In this document: positions 21,184-41,447 of the stretch, one piece after another
Position numbering within the stretch: position 1 is the first letter of the stretch
Layout of the letters: each line of letters begins with the position of its first letter
Assembly: GCA_031409275.1 (NCBI GenBank)
Contig: JANNXA010000055.1
Coordinates: forward strand, 320,001-384,000
From: Planctomycetota bacterium
GTDB taxonomy: Bacteria; Planctomycetota; B15-G4; SIAN01
DNA length: 64,000 bases
Reading direction: 5' to 3'
Translations under genes and position numbers: made by a program
The notes under the pieces: generated by a model
The model's input: the letters and a program-made list of their open reading frames with translations, nothing else
Told to the model about the DNA's origin: nothing
Databases searched by the model: none

Positions 21184-21456
21184 ATCGCGGCGAAACGGCC
21201 GTTCCCCGGCGATTTTCCGTGGCCGACGAAGTTCGGCCCGCGACTTCCTAGGACGGTCTCCTGCAACCCCTGACGAAACGCCGGGACTGGGCTAGCCTCC
21301 CGGCGCTCGCTTCGGACCAGTTCCGTCGACCGCGCACAGCCCGCGCGGAAACGTGCGATGCCGCTCCTGCGGCCCAACGTTCGGCGAACGTGGAACGGCG
21401 ATTCGTCGTGCAGGTTGCTCATCGCCTGAACGCGTCGAAGCGCCGCTCCGCGAGCC

Positions 21457-21489
21457 GCATGGAACCCCGTCGCCTCGCGGTCCGTCCAA
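21457..21489 (+). promoter_or_regulatory. Putative ECF-sigma promoter (GGAAC-N17-CGTC)
   Basis: GCATGGAAC-N15-TCCGTCCAA, 44 bp before the GTG start; closely resembles the motifs at 29199 and 31749. Confidence 0.5.
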
Positions 21490-21532
21490 CCTTGCTACGC
21501 CGTGTTTGGCACCCGGGAAGAGGAGAAAACGA

Positions 21533-24705: not shown

Positions 24706-27681
24706 ATGCTGAAGCACTTCGCAGTTCCATCACTCGTCGCTGCGCTCGCCCTGGGGGCGAGTGCGCAGTCAACGACGACATCGACGATCGGCTCGTTCGT
24801 GAGCGGGGAGCGACCCTACTACCTTGAGGTCGACCAGTTCGCTGACAACCAGCCGTACACGGTCAAGTTCATGAACCTGCCGGCGGGTGCCACCGACGTC
24901 ACGCTCTACCTCTCGCCGAAGATCGTCGTGGTCAAGCACCCCGATGCTTCCGCGCCGGGCAACTTCGGCATCGACCTCGCCTCGGCCACCACCATCAAGG
25001 TCACGGGCAGCAGCTACAGCGGCACCGTCAACGGCGCCACCTGCAACGGCCCGATGTACATGCAGGGCTACTTCAAGACCGCGGCCGGCGGCCGCCTCAC
25101 CTCGCTGGTCGAGCTGTTCCCCGACAGCGCGCTGACGTCGCCTCCGTCGCAATCGATCTCGTTCCCGCTGCCGCTGGTGACGCAGGAAGTCCTGCGCCCC
25201 GGCAAGAAGGGGGTCGACCGGACCGCCCAGGCGGTGCGTGTCGGCGTGCCGCTGCCAAAGGGACAGGTCTTCGAGAAGAACGGCGTCCCGCAGATGACCC
25301 TCACCGGCGGCCCGAAGGAGGGGCAGTTCTCGACGCTCGCCAAGTGGAGCGACGGCAGCTGCAAGTGGGTGCTCGCCGAGTACCGCGCCGACGTTCTGGC
25401 CGGCCAGACCAACAGCTCGATCAAGGTCGACAAGGGCACCGGCAACTTCGGCGGTTCCGACCTCGCGACCGTCAGCGGCACGGTGACGACCGTCGACACC
25501 GGCGCGATGAAACTGACCATCGACTCGAGCAAGCCCGATCTCTTCCAGTCGCTGCAGGCGAACGGCCGCGACCTGATCTCGACCTCCGCCGGCAACAAGC
25601 CCCACTTCTGGGACGACAAGGACGTCGAGTGGACCTGGCACAAGACGTCGGTCAAGACGCGGCGCAACGGACCGGTCCGCAGCGAGATCGAGGTGGACGG
25701 CATGTTCACCCGCTCGTCGTCGGCGACCGACGCCGACCGGATCCTGGTTCGCTTCTACCTCGAAGCGGCGAAGGGCTCGTCCGCGCTGCGCGCGACGGTG
25801 TCCCTGCGCGACACCAGCATCCAGTTCCCCGAGCACCTGATGTTCCGCGGCTTCACCTACCGCCTGCAGTTGAACGAGTCGGGCCCGTTCGACGTGCGCA
25901 TGCCCAAGCCGGCGCTGCTCGGTGACGCGGTCACCTTGCACAGCGGCTCGATCGGCAGCGGGCAGGATGCGGCCTTCGTCAGCGGCTACGTGCGCCGCTC
26001 CGACTATCGCCTGCAGACCGACCCGAACTCCTCGTCGCACTACGGCTTCGTCCAGCGCAACGGCGCCGACGACTTCGCCGTCGAAGGCGTCTGCGCGCGC
26101 ATCGGCAGCACGAACTTCTGCGGCTCTTCGGCGACCAACTGGTTCTCCGCGGAAGGCGAGTTCTCCGACCCGTCGTTCGTCGAGCTCAACTCGCAGTCGT
26201 CCGGCCGCGGCACGGTCTTCGGCATCGAGCACGCCTGCCGGACCTGGCCGGTGAGCATGGAAGCCGGCGGCGACGGACGCGTCGAGATCGGCCTGCTGCC
26301 GCGCAAGAAGTCGAGCGACACCTACCTCTATCCGCTGACCTACGCCAGCGCGGAGACGCGCAGCTTCTATCTCTCCTTCGAGACCGCGCGCGCCGCGGAC
26401 CCCTTCGCGGTGGCGACGAGCTTCGACTACCCGGTCGTCGCCCGCGCCGACCTCTTCGCCTACAACCAGGCGCAGGTGTGGCCGTGGAACCTCGTCTCGG
26501 AAGCGGACGCGAAGAGCTACCAGACCTTCGCCAACATCCGCACGACCCAGCCCGACAAGTCCGATCCGGCCCGCACCAACTATCGCTTCGCGGGCGGCAC
26601 CGGCGGCGGCAACAACAACTGGGAGGAGACGCGCCGCTTCTACCACTGGCTGCGCACCGGCAACGGCGGCTCGTACTTCAGCTCGCTGTTCGAGGCGTAC
26701 TACAAGGTCGACAAGATGGCCTGGAACATCGATGACGGCCGCCTGGCCGATCGCCAGAAGATCCGCAACTCGACCGCCAAGGTGACGCGCAAGTCGGACA
26801 TGTACGACGGCAGCAAGCACACCTTCTTCCAGGCGGTCCCCGACTGGGCCTTCGCCCGCGGCGAGACCTACCTGCTCGACGCCGCCAAGCCGCTGGCGGA
26901 GACGATCCTCGACAAGTCGATCTCGCCGAACGTGCAGCCGAACGGCAACTTCGTGCAAGGCACCTACGGCGCGGTCACGGATGCCGCGTGCGCCGCACTC
27001 GCGCTCGGCCCCAATCAGGAGCTCGAGGACTGGCTGCACCTGATCATGTACCAGTGGGCGAACGTGGTCTTCCAGCAGAGCAACAGCTTCGGAGTGAACA
27101 CCGGCACGCTCGGCTGGCAGGCGCCGGTCGGCACGCCGGAAGGCAGCGCGACCAACCCCGACGGCTACATGATCACGTGGTCGGCCGGCAAGGCCTCCGA
27201 CAAGGCGAAGTACGGCTACATGTCGCAGATCTGGACCGACCTGCGCGGCAACTCGCTCGCCTTCAAGAACTACTCGCACTTCCTCGCCGAGAAGGCGCCG
27301 ACCGATCCGCTGCTCTCCGACCTGCTCTACCGCTCGGCGGACATGTACCACTACGCGCGCCGCGGCCTGATCGATGACCACAACCGCAACACCGGCGACT
27401 ACTACATCACCGACGTCTTCGCCGGCGACGCGGGCAACAGCAAGCCCAACCCGCTCTCAGCTCCGGGCGCCTTCATCGACAAGCCCAACACCAGCGGCTA
27501 CTCGAACCAGAGCATCGTCAACTTCCTCCTCGACTTCCGCGCGAGCGAGTCGGCCTACAGCTACGGGGTCGAGCTGAACCGCAGCATGTCGGAGACGACC
27601 TACCAGCACATGGTGAACGACCCGATCCTGAACGACTTCATCTATCGCTACCTGGTGCACTACGGCGTCATCAAGCCGTGA
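24706..27681 (+). CDS. Large secreted PcRGLX/YetA-like protein, paralog 2 (991 aa)
   Basis: GGAGG RBS; signal peptide ASA-Q; collinear with paralog 1 along its whole length (NNWEETRRFY, EAYYKVDKM, PNGNFV.GTYGA, NDPILN.FI.RYLVHYG..KP). Confidence 0.65.
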   Translation: MLKHFAVPSLVAALALGASAQSTTTSTIGSFVSGERPYYLEVDQFADNQPYTVKFMNLPAGATDVTLYLSPKIVVVKHPDASAPGNFGIDLASATTIKVTGSSYSGTVNGATCNGPMYMQGYFKTAAGGRLTSLVELFPDSALTSPPSQSISFPLPLVTQEVLRPGKKGVDRTAQAVRVGVPLPKGQVFEKNGVPQMTLTGGPKEGQFSTLAKWSDGSCKWVLAEYRADVLAGQTNSSIKVDKGTGNFGGSDLATVSGTVTTVDTGAMKLTIDSSKPDLFQSLQANGRDLISTSAGNKPHFWDDKDVEWTWHKTSVKTRRNGPVRSEIEVDGMFTRSSSATDADRILVRFYLEAAKGSSALRATVSLRDTSIQFPEHLMFRGFTYRLQLNESGPFDVRMPKPALLGDAVTLHSGSIGSGQDAAFVSGYVRRSDYRLQTDPNSSSHYGFVQRNGADDFAVEGVCARIGSTNFCGSSATNWFSAEGEFSDPSFVELNSQSSGRGTVFGIEHACRTWPVSMEAGGDGRVEIGLLPRKKSSDTYLYPLTYASAETRSFYLSFETARAADPFAVATSFDYPVVARADLFAYNQAQVWPWNLVSEADAKSYQTFANIRTTQPDKSDPARTNYRFAGGTGGGNNNWEETRRFYHWLRTGNGGSYFSSLFEAYYKVDKMAWNIDDGRLADRQKIRNSTAKVTRKSDMYDGSKHTFFQAVPDWAFARGETYLLDAAKPLAETILDKSISPNVQPNGNFVQGTYGAVTDAACAALALGPNQELEDWLHLIMYQWANVVFQQSNSFGVNTGTLGWQAPVGTPEGSATNPDGYMITWSAGKASDKAKYGYMSQIWTDLRGNSLAFKNYSHFLAEKAPTDPLLSDLLYRSADMYHYARRGLIDDHNRNTGDYYITDVFAGDAGNSKPNPLSAPGAFIDKPNTSGYSNQSIVNFLLDFRASESAYSYGVELNRSMSETTYQHMVNDPILNDFIYRYLVHYGVIKP

Positions 27682-27766: not shown

Positions 27767-29140
27767 TCAGCGACGCAGCCGCGCCAGCAGCCGCGCCTTG
27801 ACGCTGGTCATCGCGACCCGCTCCGCCGCATCGAAGCGCTCGGACGAGAGGAAGAGCGGCGCCGTTTCGGGCCGCTCGGGCAGCCGGCCATGCGAGCCGC
27901 GCGCGAGCCCGGGGTCGAGCGAGATCGCCTTCATCAGGTAGCGAAAGCCCAGCTTCTTCTTCAGCAGCGTGGCCGCGAGCTTCAGCTTCAGGAAGCGGTC
28001 GCCCGGCGAGAAGAAGAGTTCGCTCGGGTCGTAGCCGGGCTTGCGATGGATGTCGACGGTCGGCGCGAAGTCGGGCGCGAGCGCGTCGTCGAACCAGTAG
28101 TGGTAGGCGAAGAAGCGATCGCGCGCGCTGATCGCGACGAGCTCGCCCGAGCGCTCGTGGTCGAGCCCCGCCGCGCGCTTGCCCTCGGCATCGAGCACGC
28201 GATCGATTCCGGCGGTCCGCTCGAGCAGCACCTTCACCGCGGCCACATCGACCGCGCGGCGCACGTAGACGTGAGCGACCTGGTGGTCGGCAACCGCAAA
28301 GGCGCGCGAGCCGCCTGGATCGAGCAGTTCGCCAAACGGAGTGGTGCGCACGGAGAGGTAGCCGTCATGGCGCAGGACGCGGTTGATCGCCACGGCACCG
28401 GTCACGGCATCGATGCCGTACTCGCTCACGACCACCACCGAGCGGCCTTGGGCGCGCGCCACGTCGATCAGCTTCCCCGCCTCGGCATCGACGGCCGCGA
28501 CCTGCGCCGGGATGCGCGCGTCAGCGGGTCCAAAGCGCTGAAGGTCGTAGTCGAGGTGCGGCAGGTAGACCAGCGCGAGGTCGGGATCGCTGCGCAAGAG
28601 GACGCGCTTGGCCGCCTCGGCGATCCAGCGCGTCGAGAGGATCGACGCGGTCGGGCCCCAGAAGTGGAACAGCGGAAAGGTGCCGAGCTCGGCGGTGAGC
28701 TCGTCGCGCAACGACGGCGGATCCGATTGGCAGTCGGGAATCTTGCGTCCATCGGCGGGGTAGAGCGGCCGCGGCGTGAGGCTCTGCGTCGCACCCGAGT
28801 GGAGATTGAACCACCAGAAGAGGTTCGCGGTCGTCGTCGGCGGCGTCGCCACGGCCAGTTCGGCCAGCAGCTTGTCGCCCTGCACGAGGTGATTGCTCTG
28901 CCGCCACAACCACACTTCGGCGAGGTCGCGGAAATACCAGCCGTTGGCGACGATGCCGTGGGTGCGAGGCAGCGCGCCGGTGAGGAGCGTCGCCTGCGCG
29001 GTGCAGGTCACCGCCGGCAGCACCCCATCCATCGGCGCGACGAAGCCCTCCTTGGCCAGCGCCGCGAGGCGTGGCGCGTGCGGAAGCAGGTCGAGCGTCA
29101 GGCCGACCACGTCGATCACCAGCAGCTTGCGATTCGCCAT
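27767..29140 (-). CDS. Alkaline-phosphatase-superfamily nucleotide pyrophosphatase/phosphodiesterase (EboF-like)
   Basis: DVVGLT, AVTCTAQ (Thr nucleophile), HGIVANGWYFR, YLPHLDY, SEYG, DIHRKPGYDP, GSHG. Confidence 0.88.
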   Translation of the reverse strand: MANRKLLVIDVVGLTLDLLPHAPRLAALAKEGFVAPMDGVLPAVTCTAQATLLTGALPRTHGIVANGWYFRDLAEVWLWRQSNHLVQGDKLLAELAVATPPTTTANLFWWFNLHSGATQSLTPRPLYPADGRKIPDCQSDPPSLRDELTAELGTFPLFHFWGPTASILSTRWIAEAAKRVLLRSDPDLALVYLPHLDYDLQRFGPADARIPAQVAAVDAEAGKLIDVARAQGRSVVVVSEYGIDAVTGAVAINRVLRHDGYLSVRTTPFGELLDPGGSRAFAVADHQVAHVYVRRAVDVAAVKVLLERTAGIDRVLDAEGKRAAGLDHERSGELVAISARDRFFAYHYWFDDALAPDFAPTVDIHRKPGYDPSELFFSPGDRFLKLKLAATLLKKKLGFRYLMKAISLDPGLARGSHGRLPERPETAPLFLSSERFDAAERVAMTSVKARLLARLRR

Positions 29141-29198
29141 GGCGCGCATGATCGCCGCCCCGGCGTCCGCCCGGAAGCGTCGCGGCGCATCGACCCAC

Positions 29199-29229
29199 GC
29201 ATGGACAGGGGCCCGCCGGCTCCGTCCAA
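29199..29229 (+). promoter_or_regulatory. Putative autoregulatory ECF promoter
   Basis: GCATGGAC-N14-TCCGTCCAA; identical core and spacing to 31749-31776. Confidence 0.65.
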
Positions 29230-29310
29230 TCGCCCGTGGACGATCGGGACCCGGCCCATTCCGGGAGTGGACCTCGCCACTTCTTGCGCTCGCTGCAACC
29301 AAGGAGAGCG

Positions 29311-29901
29311 GTGGAAGACGACCGCGCGCTGGCCGAGGCGGCTTCGCGCGGCGATCGCGTCGCGTTCGACCAGTTGGTCGACCGCTACCTCGATCGCACG
29401 CTGCGCATCTGCGTCCGACTCCTCGGCAACTACGAGGATGCGGAGGACGCCGTGCAGGAGACCTTCGCCCGCGCCTGGTCGCGGCTGAAGAGCTTCGCCG
29501 GTCGCTCGACCTTCGGCACCTGGGTCACCACGATCGCGCTGCGCCACTGCACCGACGTCGACCGCGCGCGCAAGAGCCGCCGCCGCCACGTGCGCGAGCT
29601 GCCCGCCGACTTCGACGCCGACCGCGATGGAGCCGCCTCGCGCGCCGCGACTCCGCCCCGCGCGGTCGAGCAACGCGAACTGCTGCTGCAGGTCGAGGGA
29701 GCGCTGGCCCGACTGCCGACGCGGCTGCGCACGGCGCTGACGTTGCGCACCATCGAGGGGCTCGAGTACGAGGAAGTCGCGCGCACGATGGGCACGTCAA
29801 TCCGCTCCGCGCGCCTCTACGTCTGGGAAGCGCGTCAACGGTTGACGCGCGAACTCGAACTCGGACCCGCAACGCGCCCCGCTTCCGAGGAGCGCCCATG
29901 A
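29311..29901 (+). CDS. ECF RNA polymerase sigma factor
   Basis: AAGGAG RBS + GTG; AFDQLV.RY, DAEDAVQETF..AW, F.TWV..IA (region 2); LP.RLR.AL.LR..EGL.YEEVA (region 4). Confidence 0.93.
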   Translation: MEDDRALAEAASRGDRVAFDQLVDRYLDRTLRICVRLLGNYEDAEDAVQETFARAWSRLKSFAGRSTFGTWVTTIALRHCTDVDRARKSRRRHVRELPADFDADRDGAASRAATPPRAVEQRELLLQVEGALARLPTRLRTALTLRTIEGLEYEEVARTMGTSIRSARLYVWEARQRLTRELELGPATRPASEERP

Positions 29902-31730
29902 GCCGCTGCCGCCACGCGCGCGACCTGCACGACTACGTCGACCGCGAGCTGCCGCTCGACGCCGCGCTCGCCTTCGAGGCGCACCTCGATTCCTGCGCGA
30001 GCTGCCGCGCCGAACTCGCCGCGGCGCGCGCGCTCGACGACGCATTGCTGGCGCTGCCGCGGCCGCGCCTCGCCACCGCCGATCGCCAACGGCTGCGCGC
30101 AGCGATCGCAACCCGCATCGATGCTCCGACCGGAAGCGCGCGACCGATCGATCGCCCCAGCCTGCGTCGCCTGGCGCCACTCGCCGCGGCGGCGGCCGCG
30201 CTGGCGGCCGGCGTCACGCTGTTCGTGCTGCTGCGCGCGCCGCCGCGCGCCAACCCGCCGACCCCGACCCCCTCGGCCACCCCCAACTCCGCGGGCTCCC
30301 AAGCTGCGACCGCCCCGGCGACGCCCGCCAGCCTCTTCGCCGTCGCCCCCAACGACGCCGGCCGCGCCGATGTGCACTCCGAAGTGGCCGCGATCCTCCG
30401 CCAATTGGCGAAAGGCCACGCTGCCGCCGAAGGGGGCGAGCTCCTGACCAACTTCCTCGTCGCGATCGAGCCGCTGCGCCAGCGTGGGTTGCCCATCGCG
30501 TCGACGCTGCTCGCGCTCCTCCACGACGAGGATGGCGAGCTCGCCACGACCGGCGCGCAACTCCTCGCCACCGCCGTCGTCGCGGGAACCGTCCGTCGCG
30601 ACGAGCCTGGGCTGATCGCCACGCTCGACCGCGCGCTGCGCCGGGCGGACCGCGCGACCGCGATGCTGCACGCGCTCGAGGCGATCGGCACTCGCGGCGC
30701 CTACGAAGCGATCGTGAACGCTGCGGCGATCCCGAACCTGCGCGAGCCGGTGCTCTTCGCTCTTGCCGGGGCCGGACGGGCCGACACGCGCGAAGCGCTG
30801 CAACGCTGCCTGATCGAGCTGCTGCGCGGACGGCCCACCGACGTCGCGCTGGCCGAGCGCGTCGTCGCGCGCCTCGCGATTCGCAACGTCGAGTCGCTGC
30901 AACTGCTGGCGGCGCTCGCACGCGCTGGCCTCACGCCAGCGCTCGTCGACGAACGGCTCGAGCGCACTGCCGCCACGGCACGCCCGCTGCTCGCGGCCGC
31001 GCTGCGCGGCGACGATCCAGCGGCGCGCCGCGACGCCCTTTCGCTGGCGCCGCGGGCCGGCGACCCCACGCTTGCCGACGCGATCGTCGACGCCGCGATC
31101 GCCTACGAAGAGGGCGCCGCCGCGCTCGCGGCATTGCGCGCGCTCGGCGGTACCCCCGCCCTGCTCGCCGTCGCCCGCTGGAAGAGCGCCAGCGTGCCGA
31201 CGAAGTCGCTGTCGCAGCTCGGCGAGGAGTGCTTCGCCGCGATCGCAGCGGCGACCCCTCCAGCCGATCTGGCGCAGGCGGTCGCCGACGTCGGCGGCAT
31301 GACGCCGCGCATCGCGCTCGCGTTCGCCGACCTCGCCATCACCGCCGGCGGCGCGGGTGGCCCGCCGTTGCGCGCCGCGCTCCTCGACCATCCGCTCTCG
31401 ACCGGCGAGTTGCGCGCACGCGCCGCGCTGGCGATCGCGCGCGGCCACGAGCCGTTCGCGCCGGAGCGCGCGCTCGCGCTGCTGACGGCGCTCGCGCCTG
31501 AACTCGTCGACGACGCGAATGCCGATGGCGGGCTCGCCGGCGCGCTGCTCGTGCTGCTCTACGAGCATGGCCGCGAAGCGGAGCTGACGCGCGGGCTCGC
31601 GGCACTCGGCTGGACCAAGTCGCGCGCTCAGGTCGCGCGGCTCGCGGCGGCCGCGCGGCGCATCCTCGACGAGCGTTCGCTCGACCGCAGCGTGGAGCGC
31701 CTCGACACGCTGCTCGCGCTTGGCCCGTAG
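29898..31730 (+). CDS. Zinc-binding (ZAS/zf-HC2) transmembrane anti-sigma factor with large helical-repeat extracytoplasmic domain
   Basis: ATGA-coupled to sigma; C..L.DYVD.EL...FEAHLDSCASC; single TM helix; Pro-rich linker; Ala/Leu HEAT-like repeats. Confidence 0.85.
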   Translation: MSRCRHARDLHDYVDRELPLDAALAFEAHLDSCASCRAELAAARALDDALLALPRPRLATADRQRLRAAIATRIDAPTGSARPIDRPSLRRLAPLAAAAAALAAGVTLFVLLRAPPRANPPTPTPSATPNSAGSQAATAPATPASLFAVAPNDAGRADVHSEVAAILRQLAKGHAAAEGGELLTNFLVAIEPLRQRGLPIASTLLALLHDEDGELATTGAQLLATAVVAGTVRRDEPGLIATLDRALRRADRATAMLHALEAIGTRGAYEAIVNAAAIPNLREPVLFALAGAGRADTREALQRCLIELLRGRPTDVALAERVVARLAIRNVESLQLLAALARAGLTPALVDERLERTAATARPLLAAALRGDDPAARRDALSLAPRAGDPTLADAIVDAAIAYEEGAAALAALRALGGTPALLAVARWKSASVPTKSLSQLGEECFAAIAAATPPADLAQAVADVGGMTPRIALAFADLAITAGGAGGPPLRAALLDHPLSTGELRARAALAIARGHEPFAPERALALLTALAPELVDDANADGGLAGALLVLLYEHGREAELTRGLAALGWTKSRAQVARLAAAARRILDERSLDRSVERLDTLLALGP

Positions 31731-31748
31731 CCACGGCGCGCGACGCGT

Positions 31749-31776
31749 GCATGGACGTGCGAGCGCGATCTCCGTC
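31749..31776 (+). promoter_or_regulatory. Putative ECF promoter of the secretin-like gene
   Basis: GCATGGAC-N14-TCCGTC, second copy of the motif upstream of the sigma gene. Confidence 0.65.
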
Positions 31777-31835
31777 TCACGTTGATGCACGCGACCACCG
31801 GGCTCTCCGGTGCGCGCGAGCGCTTGGAGGATCCG

Positions 31836-33620
31836 ATGGTGCTCACGTCGTGGCTCGCTGCCGCACTCCTGTCCGCTGCGCCGTTGTCCGGGAACGATGA
31901 GCAAGGCGCCGGCGCGCGCCGCCCGCTGGTGCTGCAGCGCCACTCGATCTCGGCGCTCACTCACGCGAGCGTGTCGCCTTGCGCCGCGCTCAACCTGCTG
32001 CCGCTCGCCCAACCCAATGACGCCAACGGGGGTGACGGCGGCGAGGGCGAGCTTCGGAGCGCGCTCGAGACCGACTACGTCATCGAACTGGTGCGGACGG
32101 TCGTCGAGCCGAGTGGCTGGGAGAACGATGGTTGGCGGCTGGAGAGCTTCGATGGCGGCGCTCTCGTCGTCGTGGCTCCCAACGACGTGCAGGCGAAGAT
32201 CGGCGAGCTCCTCGCGACGCTCGAACGCGATCTGCTGCCGAGCGAACGGCTCGAAGTGCGCCTGCTTCCGGGCGGCAGCGCGGCGTTCTCCAGTTCGAGC
32301 GGCCTGCTGGTCGACCGCGCCACGGCCGATCAGCGCCTCGCCGGCAAGGGCGCGCTCCACCTCGCGCGCGTCTCGCTGCGCGACCTGCAACCGGTCGGCG
32401 GCAGCTTCGGCGAGACGCAGGAGTTCACTTCGCAGTTCGACCTCCAGATCGCCGAGAGCGCCGTGACGACGACTCCACGGCGATCGAGCTGGCTGCGCGG
32501 GCTGCGACTCCTCGCGCGCGCCACCCGCGTCGACGCCGGCGCGCTGGTGCAACTGGTCGTCAGCGCGGCCGATCCGGTCGCACCCACCGATGCCACCGCC
32601 TTCGACGCTGCGTCGACGATCGCGCTCGACTCATCGCTCGCGACGCGCAAGGCGATCGGTCGCCTCGACCAGCCGCACGTCGGATTCGTCTCCTTCGCGG
32701 GCACCGTGCTGCTGCCCGAAGGCAAGGCGCTGTGGCTGCCCGTCTCGATCCACACGGCGTCGGGCGAGGTCGAATGCACGCTCGACCTGCGCTGCGAGCT
32801 GGGCAGCAGCCGCCCTTGCGCGGTCATCGAGCCGATCGCCCGCAGCGAGGGCGAAGCGTTGCGGCTGTCTCTGCGACGCGCCCTGCCGAGCTCGCTCGGA
32901 CGGGTGCAGCTCGGCCGCCTCGGCATCACCTGTTCCGGCCTTTCGGACGCCGACCCGCTCTTCAACCGGCGCTTCGCGGGCGACCAGGCCCCCATCGCGC
33001 GCTTCGGTGAGGCGATCTCCGCCGAGGGCGCGTGCGCCATGGCCAGCTCGATGGTCCAGGAGGTCCTCGACACCGATCCGTGGTGCCAGGTCGGGCTGCT
33101 CGGTTCCGGGCTGCGCACGCTGCTTCCGCCCGCCGCCAGCAACGTGGTGACGGCAGCGCTTGCGACCCTGACCGGCGGCGATGGCGGCGCCACGATCCGC
33201 GCGCGCGTACGCATCGGCGGTGAACTGCGCGGCGAGTTCGCCGTCCCCGCGATGGTCGACCAACCGCTCGCGCTGTGGACCGGCGTCAACACGCTGCTGG
33301 TGCAGGGCTGGGACGCCGACGTCGCCAGCAACGTCGCCGGCCCATCTCCGTTGACCCAATCGTTCCTGGATGGACTCGCGCTGCATCTGCTGCTCGAGCG
33401 TGGCGTCCGTGGCGAGCTGCACCTCAGCGTCAACGCGGCCGCGCAGCTCCTGACGGCACCCGCTGCGCTCGTCAGCGTCGGCGACGCGAGCGACCTGTCG
33501 GTCCATCAGGTGCGCGCCAGCGTGCTGGCGATCGATGAGCTGGTGTCGCTGCCGGCGCGTGGCGGCAGCGTGACGCTCGGCGGCGACGTCCAGCTCGAGC
33601 TCGAGGTGATCCCGAACTGA
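31836..33620 (+). CDS. Secreted protein with two secretin-like (NolW/N-domain + beta) modules
   Basis: GGAGG RBS, signal peptide; ELVRTVVEPSGW..ALVVVAPNDVQAKIGELLATL resembles secretin N domains; duplicated segments FDLQIAESA..P..W.RGL.L and WDADVASNV..P..F.DGL.L. Confidence 0.5.
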   Translation: MVLTSWLAAALLSAAPLSGNDEQGAGARRPLVLQRHSISALTHASVSPCAALNLLPLAQPNDANGGDGGEGELRSALETDYVIELVRTVVEPSGWENDGWRLESFDGGALVVVAPNDVQAKIGELLATLERDLLPSERLEVRLLPGGSAAFSSSSGLLVDRATADQRLAGKGALHLARVSLRDLQPVGGSFGETQEFTSQFDLQIAESAVTTTPRRSSWLRGLRLLARATRVDAGALVQLVVSAADPVAPTDATAFDAASTIALDSSLATRKAIGRLDQPHVGFVSFAGTVLLPEGKALWLPVSIHTASGEVECTLDLRCELGSSRPCAVIEPIARSEGEALRLSLRRALPSSLGRVQLGRLGITCSGLSDADPLFNRRFAGDQAPIARFGEAISAEGACAMASSMVQEVLDTDPWCQVGLLGSGLRTLLPPAASNVVTAALATLTGGDGGATIRARVRIGGELRGEFAVPAMVDQPLALWTGVNTLLVQGWDADVASNVAGPSPLTQSFLDGLALHLLLERGVRGELHLSVNAAAQLLTAPAALVSVGDASDLSVHQVRASVLAIDELVSLPARGGSVTLGGDVQLELEVIPN

Positions 33621-33731
33621 TCGGAACGGTCGGAACCACCCGCTTCCTTCGGCGGCGCAGTGCGGCGAGACTGCCGCGCTGCGCCGTCACCCGTTCGGGG
33701 TGGCGTGCGCGCACAAGAAGAGGAGTCGCGC

Positions 33732-34670
33732 ATGCGCTTTCGACGACTCGGCTGGAGCAGTTGCAAGGTCTCGACGGTCTCGCTCGGGAGCTGGCTCACC
33801 GTCGGCTGGACCATCGATCAGGCGACCACCAACGCCCTCGTGCGCACCGCCTTCGAAGGCGGCGTCAACTTCGTCGACACCGCCGACGTCTACGCACGCG
33901 GAGCCGCCGAGCTGGCGCTCGGTGAAGCGCTTGCACCGTTCAAGCGCTCCGACTACGTCCTGGCGACCAAGTGCTTCTGGCCGATGAGCGACGGCGTCAA
34001 CGACCGCGGCCTGTCGCGCAAGCACCTCTTCGAATCGGTGCATGCCTCGCTCCGACGGCTGCGGACCGACTACCTCGACTTGATGCAGTGCCACCGGTTC
34101 GATCCCGAGACCAGCGTCGACGAAGTGGTCGACGCGATGAGCGATCTGATCCGCGCCGGCAAGGTCCACTACTGGGGCGTGTCGGTGTGGAGCGGAGCGC
34201 AGATCGCGGACGCCGCGGCGCGCGCTGGCGCCCGCCACGGCTTCGCTCCGGTCACCAATCAGCCGCCCTACAACCTGCTCGAACGCGACATCGAGCAGGA
34301 GGTGATCCCGCGCAGCCGCGAGAACCGCGTATCGCAGATCGTCTTCAGTCCGCTGGCGCAGGGGCTGCTGACCGGCAAGTACGCCGGCGGCAAGCTGCCC
34401 GCTGATTCGCGCGCTGCGAACGACAAGAAGAACAGCTTCCTCAAGCCCAAGCTCACGGCCACCAACGTCGCCCGCGCGCAGAAGGTCGTCGACCTCGCGC
34501 GTGCCGCTGGCCTCTCGCCCGCCGCGGTCGCGCTGGCGTGGACGCTGCGCACACCCGACGTCGCTTCGGCGATCGTCGGCGCGTCGCGCCCCGAGCAGCT
34601 GAAGGAGAACCTCGCCGCCGCCGACCTCGACCTCCCGAGCGACCTCGTGAAGGCGCTCGACGCGGTGTAG
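33732..34670 (+). CDS. Aldo/keto reductase (Kv-beta/AKR6-like)
   Basis: SLGSW, DTADVY, ATK, GLSRKH, HRFD, NQPPYN, SPLAQGLLTGKY, QL.EN. Confidence 0.95.
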   Translation: MRFRRLGWSSCKVSTVSLGSWLTVGWTIDQATTNALVRTAFEGGVNFVDTADVYARGAAELALGEALAPFKRSDYVLATKCFWPMSDGVNDRGLSRKHLFESVHASLRRLRTDYLDLMQCHRFDPETSVDEVVDAMSDLIRAGKVHYWGVSVWSGAQIADAAARAGARHGFAPVTNQPPYNLLERDIEQEVIPRSRENRVSQIVFSPLAQGLLTGKYAGGKLPADSRAANDKKNSFLKPKLTATNVARAQKVVDLARAAGLSPAAVALAWTLRTPDVASAIVGASRPEQLKENLAAADLDLPSDLVKALDAV

Positions 34671-34696
34671 GTCGTGGTCGCTACGATCGGATCGTG

Positions 34697-35311
34697 ATGA
34701 ACCTTCGCGCGCTGCTCCTGCTCGTTTCGCTGTTCGCCGCGGCCGGCTGCCACGGCTACTACCCGCGCTGGCACTACGCGCCGGCGCACGAGGTGCACGT
34801 GCTGCACCTGCAAAGCGACGGCGATCCGACGGCGGTCGTGAGCGCGCGCATCGTCGGCGTACTGCGACCCGAGGAGTCGCAACCGCGGCGACTCCATGCC
34901 CGCCTCGAAGTCGAGAATCGCAGCGCGGAAGCGATCGCGCTCGACCCGTCGCGCGCGCAGTTGCGCGCCTCCGGCGGCCTGCCGTTGATCCCTTCGGAAA
35001 GCGCGACTCTGAACGTGCCCGCGCACGAGGCGCGTCGCCTCGACCTCCACTTCGCCCTTCCCGACGAACCGTCGCTGCTCGACTCCGCGCTCGACGAGGT
35101 GGAGCTCGCCTGGCCGCTCGAGGTGGGTGGCCGCGTCGTCACCACGCGGGCGCTGTTCCATCGCGCCAGCGTCTGGTCGTTCGATGAACACTACGGCTAC
35201 TCCGGTTACGACCCGTTCTGGAGCGTGCGCGGCGATTACCCCTACGGCTCGCGCTTCGATCCGTGGTGCACCGGACCCGCGTGGTACGGCTACGGGTGGC
35301 GCATTCGATGA
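34697..35311 (+). CDS. Hypothetical lipoprotein with aromatic (Y/W/G/P)-rich tail
   Basis: Lipobox AAAGC; stop overlaps the addB start (ATGA). Confidence 0.75.
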   Translation: MNLRALLLLVSLFAAAGCHGYYPRWHYAPAHEVHVLHLQSDGDPTAVVSARIVGVLRPEESQPRRLHARLEVENRSAEAIALDPSRAQLRASGGLPLIPSESATLNVPAHEARRLDLHFALPDEPSLLDSALDEVELAWPLEVGGRVVTTRALFHRASVWSFDEHYGYSGYDPFWSVRGDYPYGSRFDPWCTGPAWYGYGWRIR

Positions 35312-38181
35312 CGCCGGCCGCGGCGCTCGCGGTCGAGCACGACCCCGACCCGCGCCGGCTCGAAACGCGCCTGCTCGATCAACTCTTCGCCGCGCACGAC
35401 GCCGCCCGCGCCCACACCTACGGTCTCGCCGACCTCGTGGTCGTGGCGCCGACACGACGCCTGCTCGACCGGCTGCAAGAACAGGCTCTCGAGCGGCGCG
35501 CGGCGCTGGCCGGCATCGAGTTCGTGCTGCACGACGGCCTGGCCGCGCGCTTCCTGCGTGACGCCCGCCATCCGGCGCCGCGCGCCTTGCCTCCCGCCTG
35601 GCTCGCCACGCTCTTCGCGCCGCGCCTGCGCGCGGACGGCTCAACCCTCGAGCGCTACCTGCTGGCGCAACCCGCCGCGCAACGCGGGCTGCTGGCCACG
35701 TTTCGTGACCTTCGCGACAGCGGTCTCGACGCCGCCGCGACCCGGTCCGTGGGAGCGCGCGCGAGCGAAACGGGCCGCGCGACGCTGGAGCTCTTCGGAC
35801 GCTTCGAGGAGCTGCTCGCCGAGCTTGCGCCGATCGGCTTCGGTGACGGCGCGGCGCTTCCACGCGCCGCGCTCGCCACGACGACCCCGTTCGCGGCGCA
35901 CCATTGGTTCCACTACGGCGCCTACGAGTTGATCGGCACCCATCGCGCGTTGCTCGCGCGCGCCGCACGCGAGCGACCGGGCACGCTGTTCGTGCCCACC
36001 GAGCCGGGAGATCGCGCCGCGCGCGCCCTGCTCGAAGCGTGCGGCGCGACCTCGAGCGCGCGCGCTGCGACTTCGCCTGGCTCGACCGCCCCCGCCGCGC
36101 GCATGGTGCAACGGAGCATCCGCAGCGCCGCGACGCCGACCGATGAAGTGCGAGCCGCCGTTCGTCAACTCCTGGCATGGCATCAGCGAGATGGCGTCCC
36201 GTTCCGCGAGATGGCGCTCCTGGTGCGCGCGCCCGATCCCTACGGCGCGCTGGTGGCCGCGGAAGCGGCGCTGCACGACCTGCCGCTGGCCGCGACACCG
36301 CGCGCGTCGCTTGCGCAGCGGCCGGCGGCGCGCGAGCTGACCTGGCTGCTCCACCATCTGGCCCATCCAGAAGATGTGCTGCGCGCACGCACCGCGCGGC
36401 GCCACTGGCACTCCGATTGGCCACCAGCGGAGAGCCTGGCGCTCGAACTGGCGCGCGACGACGGACTCGCTGCACGACTGGCGCGCCTCGCCGCGCTGCT
36501 GCCCTCCGACCCGGAGGTCGTCGCGACGCTCACCGCGCAGGCCGCGCTCGCGACGGAGCTTGGCGGCGTGAAGAGCTTCGCCGCGGTGCTCGATCGCACC
36601 GAGCAGGCGGGGTTGCTCGCGCTGGCCGCGCTGGAGGAGGCGAGCGCCGCGGCGCCCGCCGCGGGCGCCGTGCAGCTGCTGGAGCTGCACCAGGCGCGCG
36701 CGTTGCCGCTGCGGCGCGCGTTGCTCTTGGGCGCGAACGAGACGCTGCTGCCGCGCCGCGGTGAGGAGGACTTCTTCCTGCCTGACGCCGATCGACGACT
36801 GCTGTCGGCGGCGACGGGAGCACCGCTCGCGCTGCACGACGACGCGCTCGCCGACGAACGGGTCCTGCTCGACCGAGCGCTCGCCGGCGTCGAGGAGCAG
36901 CTCGTGGTCAGCTACGCGCGCAGCAACGGCGACCGCGAACTCGCCCCCTCCCCGTGGCTCGCCCATCTCGCTGGCGTCGCGCCGCGCAAGGAGGCGCTGT
37001 CGCGCCACCCGCTGCGCCTGCTCGTCGATCTGCACGATCAGGTCGGCCTGCTGACCGAAACGGAGACGAGGCTCTGCTGGCTTGCCCCCCACTCGCAGGT
37101 CGTGGTTCGCGATCCAGCGTGGATCGACCAGGATCCGTTGACGCGCGCGTTCCTGCGACTGCGCGCCACCGAGAGCTACACGCCGGATGCGCTCGACTGG
37201 GATGGCGTGGTCGGACCGCTGCAGCCGCGCGAGAGCTACACGCCGAGCGAACTCGAGCAGCTCGGACGGTGCCCGCTTCAGTACTTCTTCGCGCGCGAAC
37301 TGCGCGTGCTGCCACCGGACGACGAACGCACGAGCGGCGAGCTTCCCGCCGCGCTGAAGGGGAGCCTCTTCCATCGCGCGCTCGAGCAGCTCTACGCCGC
37401 GCGCTTCACGGCTCGACTCGGCACCGCCGAGACGAGCGAGTCGCAGCTGCGAGCGGAGTTGACCGCACGTCTCTCCGCGCTGCTTCACGAGCCCGATTTC
37501 GCCGGTCGCCTCTCCGCGACGCTCGCCCCATTGCGGCTGGCGACCTACAGCGCGACGCTCGCCGCGTTCGCGTTCCGTGACCTCGCACGGCTGCGCGAGC
37601 TGCGCATCGTCGACGGTGAGTTCGAACGCGCCGAGCAGCGGGTGGACGTCGGAGCGGACGACTGGCCGATCCTCCTGCGCATGCGCCTCGATCGCCTGCT
37701 CGTCGACGCGGATGGCGGAGAATGGGTCGGCGACTACAAGTCGGGCGGCAACCTGAAGAGCAAGGCGAGCGTGACGCAAGCGCTGCGCGGTCGCGAGCTG
37801 CAGTTGGCGCTCTACGGCATGTCGCGGCTCGCCCAAGGCAAGCCGCTCAAGGGGCTCGAGCTCTACTCGCTCGCCGCCGCCGAAGAGGACGACGAAGCCG
37901 ATGCGGCGGAGAGCTACTGGCTCGGAGCGGATCTCGAAAAGCTGCGCGCGGCGCTGCCCGACCTGCGCGACACGCTCGAACAGCTGATGGAACTGCGCGA
38001 CCACGGCCGCTTCGTGCTGGAGCCCGACAGCAGCGGCGACCACTCCGCCTGCGGTCGCTGCGCTTACCGCTTTGCGTGCCGCCACTCCCACGGCGCCACG
38101 CGTGCGCGCGCCGAGCTCGCGCCCGAGTTCGCCACGTATCAGGCACTCGCCCGCAAGGGCGCACGCAAGGCGACGCCATGA
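35308..38181 (+). CDS. addB: AddB/RexB-like inactive helicase + PD-(D/E)XK nuclease
   Basis: E..L...A..L.VSY; TPSELE..RCP; GSLFH; RLDRL, GDYKS, QL.LY; CxxCxxxxxC Fe-S cysteines. Confidence 0.8.
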   Translation: MTPAAALAVEHDPDPRRLETRLLDQLFAAHDAARAHTYGLADLVVVAPTRRLLDRLQEQALERRAALAGIEFVLHDGLAARFLRDARHPAPRALPPAWLATLFAPRLRADGSTLERYLLAQPAAQRGLLATFRDLRDSGLDAAATRSVGARASETGRATLELFGRFEELLAELAPIGFGDGAALPRAALATTTPFAAHHWFHYGAYELIGTHRALLARAARERPGTLFVPTEPGDRAARALLEACGATSSARAATSPGSTAPAARMVQRSIRSAATPTDEVRAAVRQLLAWHQRDGVPFREMALLVRAPDPYGALVAAEAALHDLPLAATPRASLAQRPAARELTWLLHHLAHPEDVLRARTARRHWHSDWPPAESLALELARDDGLAARLARLAALLPSDPEVVATLTAQAALATELGGVKSFAAVLDRTEQAGLLALAALEEASAAAPAAGAVQLLELHQARALPLRRALLLGANETLLPRRGEEDFFLPDADRRLLSAATGAPLALHDDALADERVLLDRALAGVEEQLVVSYARSNGDRELAPSPWLAHLAGVAPRKEALSRHPLRLLVDLHDQVGLLTETETRLCWLAPHSQVVVRDPAWIDQDPLTRAFLRLRATESYTPDALDWDGVVGPLQPRESYTPSELEQLGRCPLQYFFARELRVLPPDDERTSGELPAALKGSLFHRALEQLYAARFTARLGTAETSESQLRAELTARLSALLHEPDFAGRLSATLAPLRLATYSATLAAFAFRDLARLRELRIVDGEFERAEQRVDVGADDWPILLRMRLDRLLVDADGGEWVGDYKSGGNLKSKASVTQALRGRELQLALYGMSRLAQGKPLKGLELYSLAAAEEDDEADAAESYWLGADLEKLRAALPDLRDTLEQLMELRDHGRFVLEPDSSGDHSACGRCAYRFACRHSHGATRARAELAPEFATYQALARKGARKATP

Positions 38182-41100
38182 GCGCCGACCTCCCGCCCGA
38201 TGCCGCGGCCCGCGAGGCGGCCGTGACCGACTTCGCGCACAACCTCTGCGTCGCGGCGGGCGCCGGCGCGGGCAAGACGAGCCTGCTGGTCGAACGGCTG
38301 CTCCACGCGCTGCTGGTGGTCGGCCTGCCGATGCAGCGACTGGCCGCGATCACCTTCACCGACAAGGCGGCCGCAGAGATGCGGGCGCGCCTCGCGCAAG
38401 CGTTGCAGGCCGCGATCGCGGCGCTCGAGCCCGGGGGAACGAGCAGCGACGCGGCCCGTCGCTGCGCACCAGCGGCCGACGTCGCTCGTCGCGTGCTCGA
38501 GCGAGCGGCGCGACTCGGCACGGTCGACGCGGCGACGATGCTGCGGCGCGCCCGCATCGCCGAAGAGGCCCCGGCCCGCGTCGCCACCATCCACTCCTTC
38601 GCCTTGGCGTTGCTGCACCGCCATCCAATCGAGGCGGGGGTCCCGGCCGGCGTCGCCATGGACCTCGGCGATGGCTGGCGACGCCACGTGCGCGCGCAGC
38701 TGCCGGCGGCGATCGCAGCCGCGCTGGCGGCGGAAACGAAAGCGACCGCGCTGCGCGGCGCGCTGGCGGAACTCGAAGTCGATCAGCTCGGCGCCCTCGT
38801 GACCGCGCTCGCGTGGCTGCCCGGCGCAGGCGCTCCCGTACCGGCGCGCACCATCGTCGCGCCGCTGCTGCTGCCGCTGTTGCCGGCACTCGCGACCGGA
38901 CGCGCCGCACTGCCGCCACCGACTCACACCACGCGCAAGCTCTACGAACAATGGGATCTGGTGCTCGATGCCCTGCACGCGCTCGATCGGTTGCCCGTCG
39001 ACGCGGCGCCCGCGAGTGTCGTGACGCCGGCGCTGCGAACCGCGCTCGCCAAGGAGATCTCCAAGGCGAAGGTCGTCAGCGCCGCGGTCGATGTCGACGC
39101 CTGTCGCGCGCTGCTCGCGAAGGCGTACGCCGGATTCGATCGGCTGCTGCAGGTCGATGACGCGGGGATCGAGCTCGTGTTGGCGGCGGCGCTGCCGATC
39201 GCGAAGGCGCTGAAGGATGACTTTTTGCGCGGCGGTCGCATCTCCGCCGATGGCACGCTGGCTCTGGCCGCGCAACTGCTCGCGCAACGACCCGCCGTGC
39301 GACGAGCCGAGGCGGCGACGATCGACCTGCTCTGCGTGGATGAGTTCCAGGACACCGACGCGCTCCAGTGCGAGCTCGTGCTTCGCCTCTGCGAGCTCGA
39401 GCCTGCCGCCGGCGCACCCGCCGGCGCACGCGGCGCGCTCGCGACCGGCCGCTTGTTCCTGGTGGGCGATCCGAAGCAGTCGATCTATCGCTTCCGCGGC
39501 GCCGACCTCGACATCTATCGCCAGACGATCGACCGCGTGCTGCGCGAAGGCGGCCGCGCGCTCTCGCTGTCGAACTGCTTCCGCAGCCCGCGCGCGCTCG
39601 TCGATCCGGTGAACCACTTCTTCGCCGCATGGAGCGACCCGACCAACGATGCCGAGCCGACCTTCGAGCCGTTGCACGCGGGGCGCGGCGACGAGCCAGG
39701 CCAGGTCGAGCTGTGGCAGGTCGTGCGCCCCGATCCGCGCAACGATGCGACCGCACGCGCCGAGGCCGAGGGGCGCGCGATCGCCGCCGACCTCGCCGCG
39801 CGCCGCGGCGATCTGCGCCGACTGCAGGACGTCGCCATCCTGTTGCGCGACCTCTCCGACCTCCATTGGTTCGCCGGGCCGCTGCGCGACCACGGCATTC
39901 CCTACGCCATCAGCGGCGGACGCACGTTCGCGCGCCGCAGCGAAGTCGGCGAACTCGCCTCGCTGCTGCTCGCCGCGGCTGATCCCGAGGACGAGGTCGC
40001 GGCGCTCGGCGCTCTGCGTTCGGGACTCGGCGGCCTCACCGACGCCGAGCTGCTGGCGACCAAGCGTTGGCGCGGAACGCTGTGCTGGCCGAAGCTCCTC
40101 GACCATCCGGTGCCGGCGGCACAGCGCGTCGCGCGCGTGCTGGCGACGCTGCACGAAGAGCTCGCGACGCGGCCGCTGCGCGCCGCGGTGACCCGCTTCG
40201 TCGACGGCTCGTGGCTGCTGCCCCTCGCCGCGCTGGCGCGCGACGGCGAACAGCGACTCGCCAATCTGCACAAGCTCGCCGAGCGTGTCATCGAACGCGC
40301 GGAGGAGCACCGGCTGCCGCTCGCCGAGGCGGTGCGCGAAGTGATCGGCGCCGACGACGAGATCGAGGGCGAAAGCGAGCGATCGCTGGCCGACGACGAG
40401 CTCGACGCCGTGCGCCTGCTCACGATCCACAAGGCGAAGGGGCTCGAGTTCGAGCATGTCTATGTCCCTGACCTCGGCCATCAACTGCGCTCCGGCCAGG
40501 CGCGGCCGTGGTCGGCATCGCTGGTGACGACGCCGCACGGCACGCAGCACGCGGTCTCCTTGCGGCCACTTCGACGCTGCAATTCGGCGCAGCTCCTGCG
40601 CGAGGCGCGCGACGAGGCGCATCGCCAGGCGGAGAACAAGCGCCTGCTCTATGTCGCGATGACGCGCGCGCGAACGCGGCTCGTGCTGGTGGCGGGGCCC
40701 GGCCCGGCCGCAGCACCGGCGAACACCTGGCTCGCGCCGCTGTTGCGCTCGTTGCCGGCGAACGTCGCGCCGCGCAGCGTCCCGATGCCGCCGCGCCCCG
40801 CGCCGACCCAACACGCGCAGCTCCTGCCGGTGGAGCAGATCGCCCGCGCGCGCCACGCCTTCGATTCGGCACGAGCCGCGGCGCAAGCCGTGTTGCCGAC
40901 CTTCGTCTCCCCCTCGCATCACGAGCCGCAACTCGAGAGCTCCGCCGCGACGCCTCGCGATGAGACGCTGGCCGCCGATCCCGAGGCGCTGTCGCTCGGC
41001 ACGTTGCTGCACGCGGCGCTGGCGCAAAGCGGCCCGCGCCGCGCGCCGACCGCGGCCGAGCTGGCGTTCGCGGCCGCCGCCCTGCCGATGCCGCCGATCG

Positions 41101-41447
41101 TGCGAGCGCGCATCGTCGCCGCTGCCAGCGCCCTGCTCAGCGCGCCGCCGGCGCGGCAACTCTTCGCGGAACTCGCTGCGGTCGAGACCGTCGCGGTCGA
41201 ACTGCCTTTGCTGCTGCGCCGCGGCGACCAGCGCTTTCGCGGGGCGGCCGATCTCGTCTTCATGGAGTCGGGTGCGCTGGTCGTCGCCGACTGGAAGAGC
41301 GATCGGAGCGACGACTTCGAGGCGCTCGCTTCGCGCTACCGGCCGCAACTCGAGGTCTACCGCGAGGCGCTCGCGGCCGCGCTGCAGCGACCGGTGCCAC
41401 GCGTCGAGCTGCTGCTGCTGCGCCACGGCCGTCGCCTGCCGTTGTAG
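38178..41447 (+). CDS. addA: AddA/RexA UvrD-family helicase-nuclease
   Basis: AGAGAGKT, ITFT.KAA.EM, TIHSF, VDEFQDT, VGDPKQSIYRFRGAD, TIHKAKGLEF, YVAMTRA; C-terminal GAADL..DWKS..QL.VY. Confidence 0.92.
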   Translation: MSADLPPDAAAREAAVTDFAHNLCVAAGAGAGKTSLLVERLLHALLVVGLPMQRLAAITFTDKAAAEMRARLAQALQAAIAALEPGGTSSDAARRCAPAADVARRVLERAARLGTVDAATMLRRARIAEEAPARVATIHSFALALLHRHPIEAGVPAGVAMDLGDGWRRHVRAQLPAAIAAALAAETKATALRGALAELEVDQLGALVTALAWLPGAGAPVPARTIVAPLLLPLLPALATGRAALPPPTHTTRKLYEQWDLVLDALHALDRLPVDAAPASVVTPALRTALAKEISKAKVVSAAVDVDACRALLAKAYAGFDRLLQVDDAGIELVLAAALPIAKALKDDFLRGGRISADGTLALAAQLLAQRPAVRRAEAATIDLLCVDEFQDTDALQCELVLRLCELEPAAGAPAGARGALATGRLFLVGDPKQSIYRFRGADLDIYRQTIDRVLREGGRALSLSNCFRSPRALVDPVNHFFAAWSDPTNDAEPTFEPLHAGRGDEPGQVELWQVVRPDPRNDATARAEAEGRAIAADLAARRGDLRRLQDVAILLRDLSDLHWFAGPLRDHGIPYAISGGRTFARRSEVGELASLLLAAADPEDEVAALGALRSGLGGLTDAELLATKRWRGTLCWPKLLDHPVPAAQRVARVLATLHEELATRPLRAAVTRFVDGSWLLPLAALARDGEQRLANLHKLAERVIERAEEHRLPLAEAVREVIGADDEIEGESERSLADDELDAVRLLTIHKAKGLEFEHVYVPDLGHQLRSGQARPWSASLVTTPHGTQHAVSLRPLRRCNSAQLLREARDEAHRQAENKRLLYVAMTRARTRLVLVAGPGPAAAPANTWLAPLLRSLPANVAPRSVPMPPRPAPTQHAQLLPVEQIARARHAFDSARAAAQAVLPTFVSPSHHEPQLESSAATPRDETLAADPEALSLGTLLHAALAQSGPRRAPTAAELAFAAAALPMPPIVRARIVAAASALLSAPPARQLFAELAAVETVAVELPLLLRRGDQRFRGAADLVFMESGALVVADWKSDRSDDFEALASRYRPQLEVYREALAAALQRPVPRVELLLLRHGRRLPL

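Follow-up and report, generated by a model that had tools for sequence, protein, structure and literature searches.

The subject of this analysis is a three-gene module of a Planctomycetota bacterium (assembly GCA_031409275.1, contig JANNXA010000055.1, positions 320,001 to 384,000; this whole stretch of 64,000 nucleotides is referred to below as the window), in which a sigma factor gene of the extracytoplasmic function (ECF) type is followed by an anti-sigma factor gene and by a gene for a secretin-derived protein, designated gene 3. Judged from its sequence, the module is an ECF circuit that is genuine and conserved, has a single target and yields an unusual product of secretin descent. The sigma gene (29311..29901, +; 196 aa) has a GTG start behind AAGGAG at 29301-29306, and its stop overlaps by 4 nt the start of the anti-sigma gene (29898..31730, +; 610 aa), which encodes a zinc finger, a membrane helix, a linker and a HEAT solenoid; gene 3 (31836..33620, +; 594 aa) has an ATG start behind GGAGG at 31826-31830, so that ribosome-binding sites precede both starts, and encodes a signal-peptide-like N-terminus and two tandem secretin-derived units. 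The initial annotation of this DNA had proposed these three genes, an ECF sigma, a ZAS anti-sigma and a secretin-like gene, and all of them are present in the window; a Pfam scan recognized the sigma and, by its zf-HC2 domain, the anti-sigma. The sigma factor probably transcribes itself and gene 3, and the chances appear evenly divided that the exported product is a periplasmic ring-building accessory or secretin decoy rather than a pore.

The promoter motif and its conservation

The sequence CGAC-n4-GCATGGAC-N13-CTCCGTC is present at 29191-29226 and at 31741-31776, and the two sites are designated as the candidate promoters P1 (29199..29226, +), with the -35 box ATGGAC at 29201-29206 and the -10 box CGTC at 29223-29226, which ends 84 nt 5' of the sigma start, and P2 (31749..31776, +), with ATGGAC at 31751-31756 and CGTC at 31773-31776, which ends 59 nt 5' of gene 3. 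The identical spacing claimed for the two sites was thereby confirmed, and the boxes had been correctly given as TGGAC-N16-CGTC, ATGGAC and CGTC lying 16 bp apart at both. The 15 specified core bases of GCATGGAC-N13-CTCCGTC match twice in the window, whereas 100 shuffled versions gave 0.00 matches on average, and this strict form finds the same two sites, and none further, in the whole 5,585,221-bp genome. The CGAC at the 5' end, which had been counted as part of the motif, is kept in only three of 15 family sites, two of them from the window's own genome.

The motif core, defined as the two boxes at a spacing of exactly 16 bp, lies 5' of the sigma gene in all eight genomes of the window's family and 5' of gene 3 in all seven that carry it, among them one with a divergent gene 3, the eighth genome (G035) being 70% complete and without a gene 3 match. 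A matrix trained on 13 orthologous sites, excluding those of the window's own genome, placed both window sites joint first at 23.3 bits, tied with one match in a coding sequence. Since the boxes themselves served to select the sites, identity between the boxes of different sites is inflated. The short form TGGAC-N16-CGTC occurs genome-wide at background frequency (49 matches vs 31-114 at other spacers of 10-22). This background level is the point in favor of the view that the two copies are a chance similarity in GC-rich DNA; nevertheless, spacing and position are fixed in the orthologues although spacers and flanks are only 32-42% identical, and the spacing controls and the held-out metagenome test described below refute that view, leaving it a negligible probability.

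At 13 loci from the four remaining families of the class, gene 3 comes after the anti-sigma gene, within ~45 nt at 12 of them and after ~235 nt at one, and none of these gaps contains the motif; the second copy, P2, is therefore special to the window's family, where it marks gene 3 as a direct target. Across 49 module sigma genes, a loose pattern, which was written after the class-level sites were known, is found upstream at the 16-bp spacing in 33 cases, against 2-11 at other spacers of 12-20 and a mean of 5.1 (maximum 13) in a shuffle control, and inside the class it precedes 27 of 30 module sigmas. The held-out test used the family pattern, fixed before a metagenome scan in which 61 loci were found and 35 were scored, 34 with at least 150 nt of upstream sequence. 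Among the close relatives in this set (67-82% identical), the motif stands at 16 bp in nine of nine loci and at 13-15 and 17-19 bp in none of the nine; two of the nine repeat upstream sequences already present in G036 and G040, so that seven are independent. The distant ECFs of the set carry it in 3 of 25 cases, one of these being itself a module locus, and it occurs in two of the three held-out gaps between the anti-sigma gene and gene 3. These family, cross-family and held-out counts support the shared promoter before the sigma gene and gene 3 that the initial annotation had suggested; this shared ECF promoter is probably autoregulated, and the conservation of the motif reflects selection.

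An inverted repeat of 120-200 bp, 85-89% identical, lies between the anti-sigma gene and gene 3 at L035, L072 and L073 (genomes G035 and G036), which suggests an inserted mobile element splitting the module. A relocation of gene 3 in G036 was considered and dropped, because the contigs break at the inverted repeat, which makes an inserted element more likely than relocation.

The designation of the system as a regulon was not borne out, since the strict, short-form and matrix scans of the genome revealed no target outside the locus. In the search for a wider regulon, the matrix scan showed no excess at 16 bp (29 matches of at least 16 bits vs 29-100 at six other spacings), and nine of the 10 other matches among the top 12 fall inside open reading frames or at gene junctions. 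A wider regulon was accordingly rejected for now, as neither the loose motif nor the matrix matches are in excess at 16 bp, and in all likelihood the predicted regulon is the locus alone, that is, an autoregulated ECF with one target. Among the top 12 matrix matches, G000:C49:50305 (L131) is the only intergenic one that could mark an additional target; GTGGAC-N16-CGTC lies there in an intergenic inverted repeat 3' of sulfate-activation-like genes. No clear motif was seen 5' of two full-length secretins and a HEAT-hairpin gene on contig C36, all discussed below, one weak 16-bp match being placed 290 nt before the second secretin. Scans for sigma-70 promoters and for terminators in 29000-35000 found nothing.

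The sigma and anti-sigma pair and the spread of the module

The identity of the sigma factor is supported by Pfam, TIGR02937, alignment and tree. It matches Sigma70_r2 and Sigma70_r4_2, contains only regions 2 and 4, and scores 94.2 bits against TIGR02937 (cut-off 42.9); a quick tree groups the 49 module sigmas on a single branch (SH-aLRT 89, short of the starred level), which also takes in one other sigma of the window's own genome and is separate from 25 other ECFs. ECF promoters are described in parts of PMC8103513 as bipartite, with an AAC-like / CGT hallmark and CGTC as the generic ECF -10 box, and a promoter of this type lies 5' of the module's own sigma gene. The -35 box had been regarded as atypical; instead, TGGAC proves to be one lineage's variant of NTNRAC, sister genomes having TGAAC and other families TTAAC or TTGAC. 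Upstream of the sigma gene, the box is ATGGAC, ATGAAC or ATCGAC in the window's family, mostly RTTAAC in families 2, 4 and 5 of the class, and TTTGAC in family 3, and these lineage forms make it a drifting variant of the AAC box that ECF promoters usually have.

Region 4.2 of the window's sigma reads IRSARLYVWEAR, and in the alignment the 4.2 helix takes, by lineage, the forms IRSAR(L/M)YV(W/F)EAR, mostly xARVYLxxAR, and S(I/V)KSxxHLAR. The -35 box and the 4.2 helix thus seem to change together by family, a co-variation that is suggestive only, because just three lineages are compared. The sigma factor very probably reads NTNRAC-N16-CGTC at P1, in the form ATGRAC in the window's family; in most lineages gene 3 would be carried on the sigma-gene transcript, and in the window's family it would have its own copy, P2. 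It is very unlikely that the conserved motif is read by another sigma factor or regulator and not by the adjacent ECF, even though the genome contains many ECF-like open reading frames, 27 of them scoring at least 60 bits, and CGTC is generic (PMC8103513, in part): the -35 box shifts by lineage with the 4.2 helix of the adjacent sigma, the pattern is absent at the four non-module ECF loci checked and at 22 of the 25 distant ECFs, and the motif accompanies gene 3 when it is rearranged, as in G037, where gene 3 is divergent from the sigma gene and each direction has its own motif copy, ATCGAC and ATAGAC.

In the anti-sigma factor, the zinc-finger residues are H29-x3-C33-x2-C36 and the membrane helix spans about 93-111. 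The HxxxCxxC signature is found in 40 of 42 module loci, 43 of 46 anti-sigma members have a scored membrane helix, and Pfam detects zf-HC2 in 20 of 21 family members and HEAT_2 in eight of 21 (E 0.01). The anti-sigma profile matches alphaRep/HEAT structures, the AlphaFold2 model (pLDDT 87.3) begins with a helical domain, which is followed by one membrane helix, a linker and, at 156-607, a solenoid, and a cluster look-up returned only HEAT leads below 0.9. From the topology of the anti-sigma, the solenoid would be placed in the periplasm. The architecture of an extracytoplasmic helical-repeat sensor, as initially proposed, is hence supported by Pfam, profile and AlphaFold2, with a zinc finger, one membrane helix and an outer HEAT domain, and the downstream gene, coupled to the sigma gene and encoding HxxxCxxC and a single membrane helix, has the hallmarks of an ECF sigma / zinc-binding class I anti-sigma pair. 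By analogy with established ECF biology, the zinc-finger domain would hold the sigma factor, and the outer HEAT solenoid would bind a protein signal, with proteolysis or release then freeing the sigma.

The gene 3 profile matched 151 of the 301 sampled genomes of the phylum (E 1e-15), a count in which shorter paralogues and full-length secretins are included. Another 39 loci were chosen because they match gene 3 strongly and over its full length; six of them are cut off upstream, and among the remaining 33 with enough upstream DNA, the sigma gene and the gene following it are present at 26. Outside the class, 19 module loci are distributed over 12 Planctomycetota families, and the three-gene module occurs in at least 17 families of the phylum.

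Several observations weigh against this picture of the circuit. P1 and P2 were assigned as promoters from sequence alone; outside the class, the loose motif is found at 16 bp in only six of 19 loci; the third held-out gap (L145) has a -10 box without a matching -35; the gene-3 sites of G036, G037 and G041 are degenerate and were chosen by eye; at seven of the 33 gene-3 loci, the 4.5 kb upstream contain no sigma; and the link between box and helix, drawn from three lineages, is confounded with descent.

The secretin-derived protein encoded by gene 3

Gene 3 escapes the usual family assignments: single-sequence Pfam and NCBIfam searches gave no match, and among 45 members of its family PF00263 was detected in none, with one weak Secretin_N match (E 0.044). 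The secretin-like character given to it in the initial annotation is nevertheless upheld by profile, structural and internal comparisons. A profile of 145 gene 3 sequences has the secretin BfpB as its sole PDB match (E 2.3e-9). With the AlphaFold2 model (pLDDT 91.8, pTM 0.90), all six Foldseek matches with E <=0.001 are secretins, although whole-chain TM scores are low (0.15-0.23), and VIA-align aligns residues 449-594 with RcpA (Z 9.9, rmsd 3.4 over 118 residues) and residues 28-135 with a GspD N domain (Z 8.3, rmsd 2.3 over 69 residues). Unit 1 (residues 28-325; 31917..32810, +) consists of an N1/N3-type domain and a secretin beta core with a 46-residue gate hairpin, and unit 2 (residues 338-594; 32847..33617, +) is a duplicate of it, the two being matched by HHalign with a probability of 99.66% (E 2.5e-24). 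A cluster look-up led to Planctomycetota clusters and to a cluster in which 30% of the members carry Secretin. The hallmark of secretins, an N3-type domain with a double beta-sheet core and gate hairpins, is therefore present in gene 3.

Compared with PF00263 secretins such as InvG, GspD, PilQ, RcpA and BfpB, and with the TPR-secretins of contig C36, gene 3 shares the N1/N3-type domain, the inner and outer beta sheets and, in the gate hairpin, the signature DxDVEIA...P; it differs in having two units per chain, in lacking the TPR or N0 region, the lip, the amphipathic helical loop and the lipobox, and in lying below Pfam detection. The segments equivalent to the lip have median lengths of 31 and 8 residues in the two units, against 121-126 in the secretins of the same genome. 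The amphipathic helical loop, for which both of those secretins are positive, was found in one of 130 gene 3 sequences with a strict pattern and in nine of 130 with a loose one, the equivalent segments measuring 11-13 residues; this loop is reported as the most conserved secretin sequence, with a proposed central role in membrane association and insertion (PMC6155069, in part). A lipobox was detected in one of 46 family members, and in BfpB membrane anchoring depends on a lipidated cysteine (PMC12531336, in part). A signal-peptide-like hydrophobic stretch occurs in 122 of 130 gene 3 sequences, and the best-kept part of the protein is the gate hairpin, with 46 residues from the 10th to the 90th percentile and alternating hydrophobic and acidic residues. 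By sequence and predicted structure, the ring domain, the two beta sheets and the gate hairpin are retained in gene 3, while the lip and the amphipathic loop are gone, and these losses make the outer-membrane channel of the initial annotation doubtful.

The full-length secretins nearest to gene 3 are encoded in the same genome, on contig C36 (G000:C36:82272-96474; L129, L130), where two TPR-secretins (~860 and ~870 aa) stand on either side of large TPR genes and of two ExbD genes. One of them, beside the TPR and two ExbD genes, matches PF00263 at 86.9 bits, and the second, which the locus edge cuts in the Pfam scan, was recognized by profile; the pairing of a secretin with ExbD-type motor genes is unusual. 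On the same contig, G000:C36:108042-109337 (L130:12043-13338) encodes a HEAT-repeat protein whose sole secretin part is a gate hairpin, with 16-17 of 26 residues identical to the secretins of its genome; as a query, this protein matched 72 of 151 genomes of the phylum, some through secretin hairpins only. Gene 3 paralogues with four units in one frame (~1,100 aa), or with extra units directly behind gene 3, are found at L040:2977-6342 (G039), L041:2068-5400 (G041), L102, L103 and L128, and some multi-unit paralogues have no sigma pair. At L084 (G021), the module's gene 3 is split into two frames of 416 and 191 aa by a frameshift or an assembly error.

Possible roles and relation to known systems

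The gene 3 product has about an even chance of staying in the periplasm and joining secretin-type beta sheets by edge pairing, either with itself or with full-length secretins. It would cap or neutralize incomplete or misplaced secretin rings, a state that the HEAT domain would sense. Two findings speak against this role: no module gene lies near the C36 secretin cluster, nor is the motif clearly upstream of those secretins, and the gate hairpins of the window's gene 3 share only 7 of 26 residues with the secretins of their own genome, which, beside the 16-17 of the HEAT-hairpin protein, counts against tight co-assembly with them.

The same weak hairpin match keeps two other explanations in play. 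In one, gene 3 forms a periplasmic ring or cage that stands by itself, serves as a scaffold or binding protein unconnected with the cell's secretins and is induced by the ECF under an unrelated envelope stress; the confident packing of both units within one chain (pTM 0.90) and the paralogues without a sigma pair, some with several successive units, would agree with it, but it is judged unlikely, since gene 3 hairpins across the family share a median of 10-11 of 26 residues with the secretins of the window's genome, roughly the closeness between those two secretins themselves (10 of 26), and every ring-building element of secretins is kept. In the other, which follows the lines of the initial annotation and is also improbable, the product forms an outer-membrane ring through amphipathic gate hairpins or a partner and passes its signal straight to the HEAT domain, which in turn frees the sigma, as in cell-surface signaling. 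The layout resembles that of TonB-transducer signaling, with a sigma, an anti-sigma and an envelope gene under that sigma (PMC11637429, in part), the trio is kept intact in at least 17 families, and the gate hairpin is the best-conserved part of gene 3. Nevertheless, the lip, amphipathic loop and lipobox are missing, the N domains match the N1/N3 type with no STN/N0 family match in Pfam scans, and full-length secretins with a retained lip carry the same hairpin too, so that its conservation need not mean membrane insertion.

The likeness to FecI/FecR/FecA and FoxI/FoxR/FoxA consists in a sigma, a membrane anti-sigma and an envelope protein gene induced by that sigma, as described in parts of PMC11637429. 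The module differs from these systems in having a zinc-finger/HEAT anti-sigma in their place and no TonB-dependent receptor, FecR or STN domain in Pfam scans of the three genes and their families, in agreement with the absence of FecR/TonB-receptor parts already claimed in the initial annotation. A closer counterpart of the anti-sigma is found in ECF231, in which, according to parts of PMC7826278 (Casas-Pastor et al. 2021), the anti-sigma at position +1 has its zinc finger in the cytoplasm, a single membrane helix and its HEAT repeats in the periplasm, and the predicted promoter, TGTAACCTT / GTTTCCAC, is conserved; this group occurs in Bacteroidetes and Acidobacteria, with adhesin neighbors. 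The anti-sigma architecture is thus already known from ECF231, whereas host range, neighbors and promoter differ: going by the description of ECF231 available in those parts, the module is set apart by its Planctomycetota host, its tandem secretin-derived neighbor and its motif, NTNRAC-N16-CGTC. No adhesin family, and no pilus or type II secretion gene beside gene 3, was detected by Pfam among the ten genes scanned around the module. In part of the supplement of PMC7826278, the word secretin has 0 occurrences, and parts of PMC7671368 and PMC10828601 hold nothing bearing on the module. A literature search combining ECF, Planctomycetes and secretin found no description of the module, which may have received an earlier planctomycetal ECF group number.

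Psp and Slk can be taken as loose precedents for a secretin-capping role, likened by function and not by homology; Psp is not known as an ECF system. In the relevant parts of the literature, the Psp response is a dedicated system that limits damage from misplaced secretins (PMC3467454), and SlkA/SlkB are plugs of PilQ (PMC13392014).

Around the module, a divergent gene of the phosphodiesterase/nucleotide-pyrophosphatase family (27767-29140, -) and, downstream, an aldo-keto reductase gene (33732-34670, +) keep their position beside it in the genus and the sister genus; the latter may be read through from P2, no terminator having been found between. Two tandem paralogous genes of ~1,000 aa each (21353-24532 and 24706-27681) have weak PcRGLX-like (polysaccharide lyase) domain matches. 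Downstream of the module, at 35263-41447, the Pfam scan identified a gene pair with a PD-(D/E)XK nuclease and a UvrD helicase-nuclease, which we take to be AddB/AddA-like.

In its promoter, anti-sigma architecture, single target and occurrence in at least 17 Planctomycetota families, the unit is a probable new ECF group, in which an unannotated secretin derivative, made of two fused units without a membrane anchor, has been placed under envelope-signal control. The lineage differences in the -35 box (TGRAC, TTAAC, TTGAC) and in the recognition helix provide naturally occurring variants with which the code of -35 recognition by ECFs could be tested. Only tentatively, the group may be devoted to secretin surveillance, the HEAT anti-sigma sensing a secretin-fold protein and the anchorless double secretin joining or capping rings as a decoy or, in the strongest form, acting as the outer transducer of a secretin-based cell-surface signaling. 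If the product binds secretins or the anti-sigma, the module would represent a new way to monitor or tame the largest outer-membrane pores.

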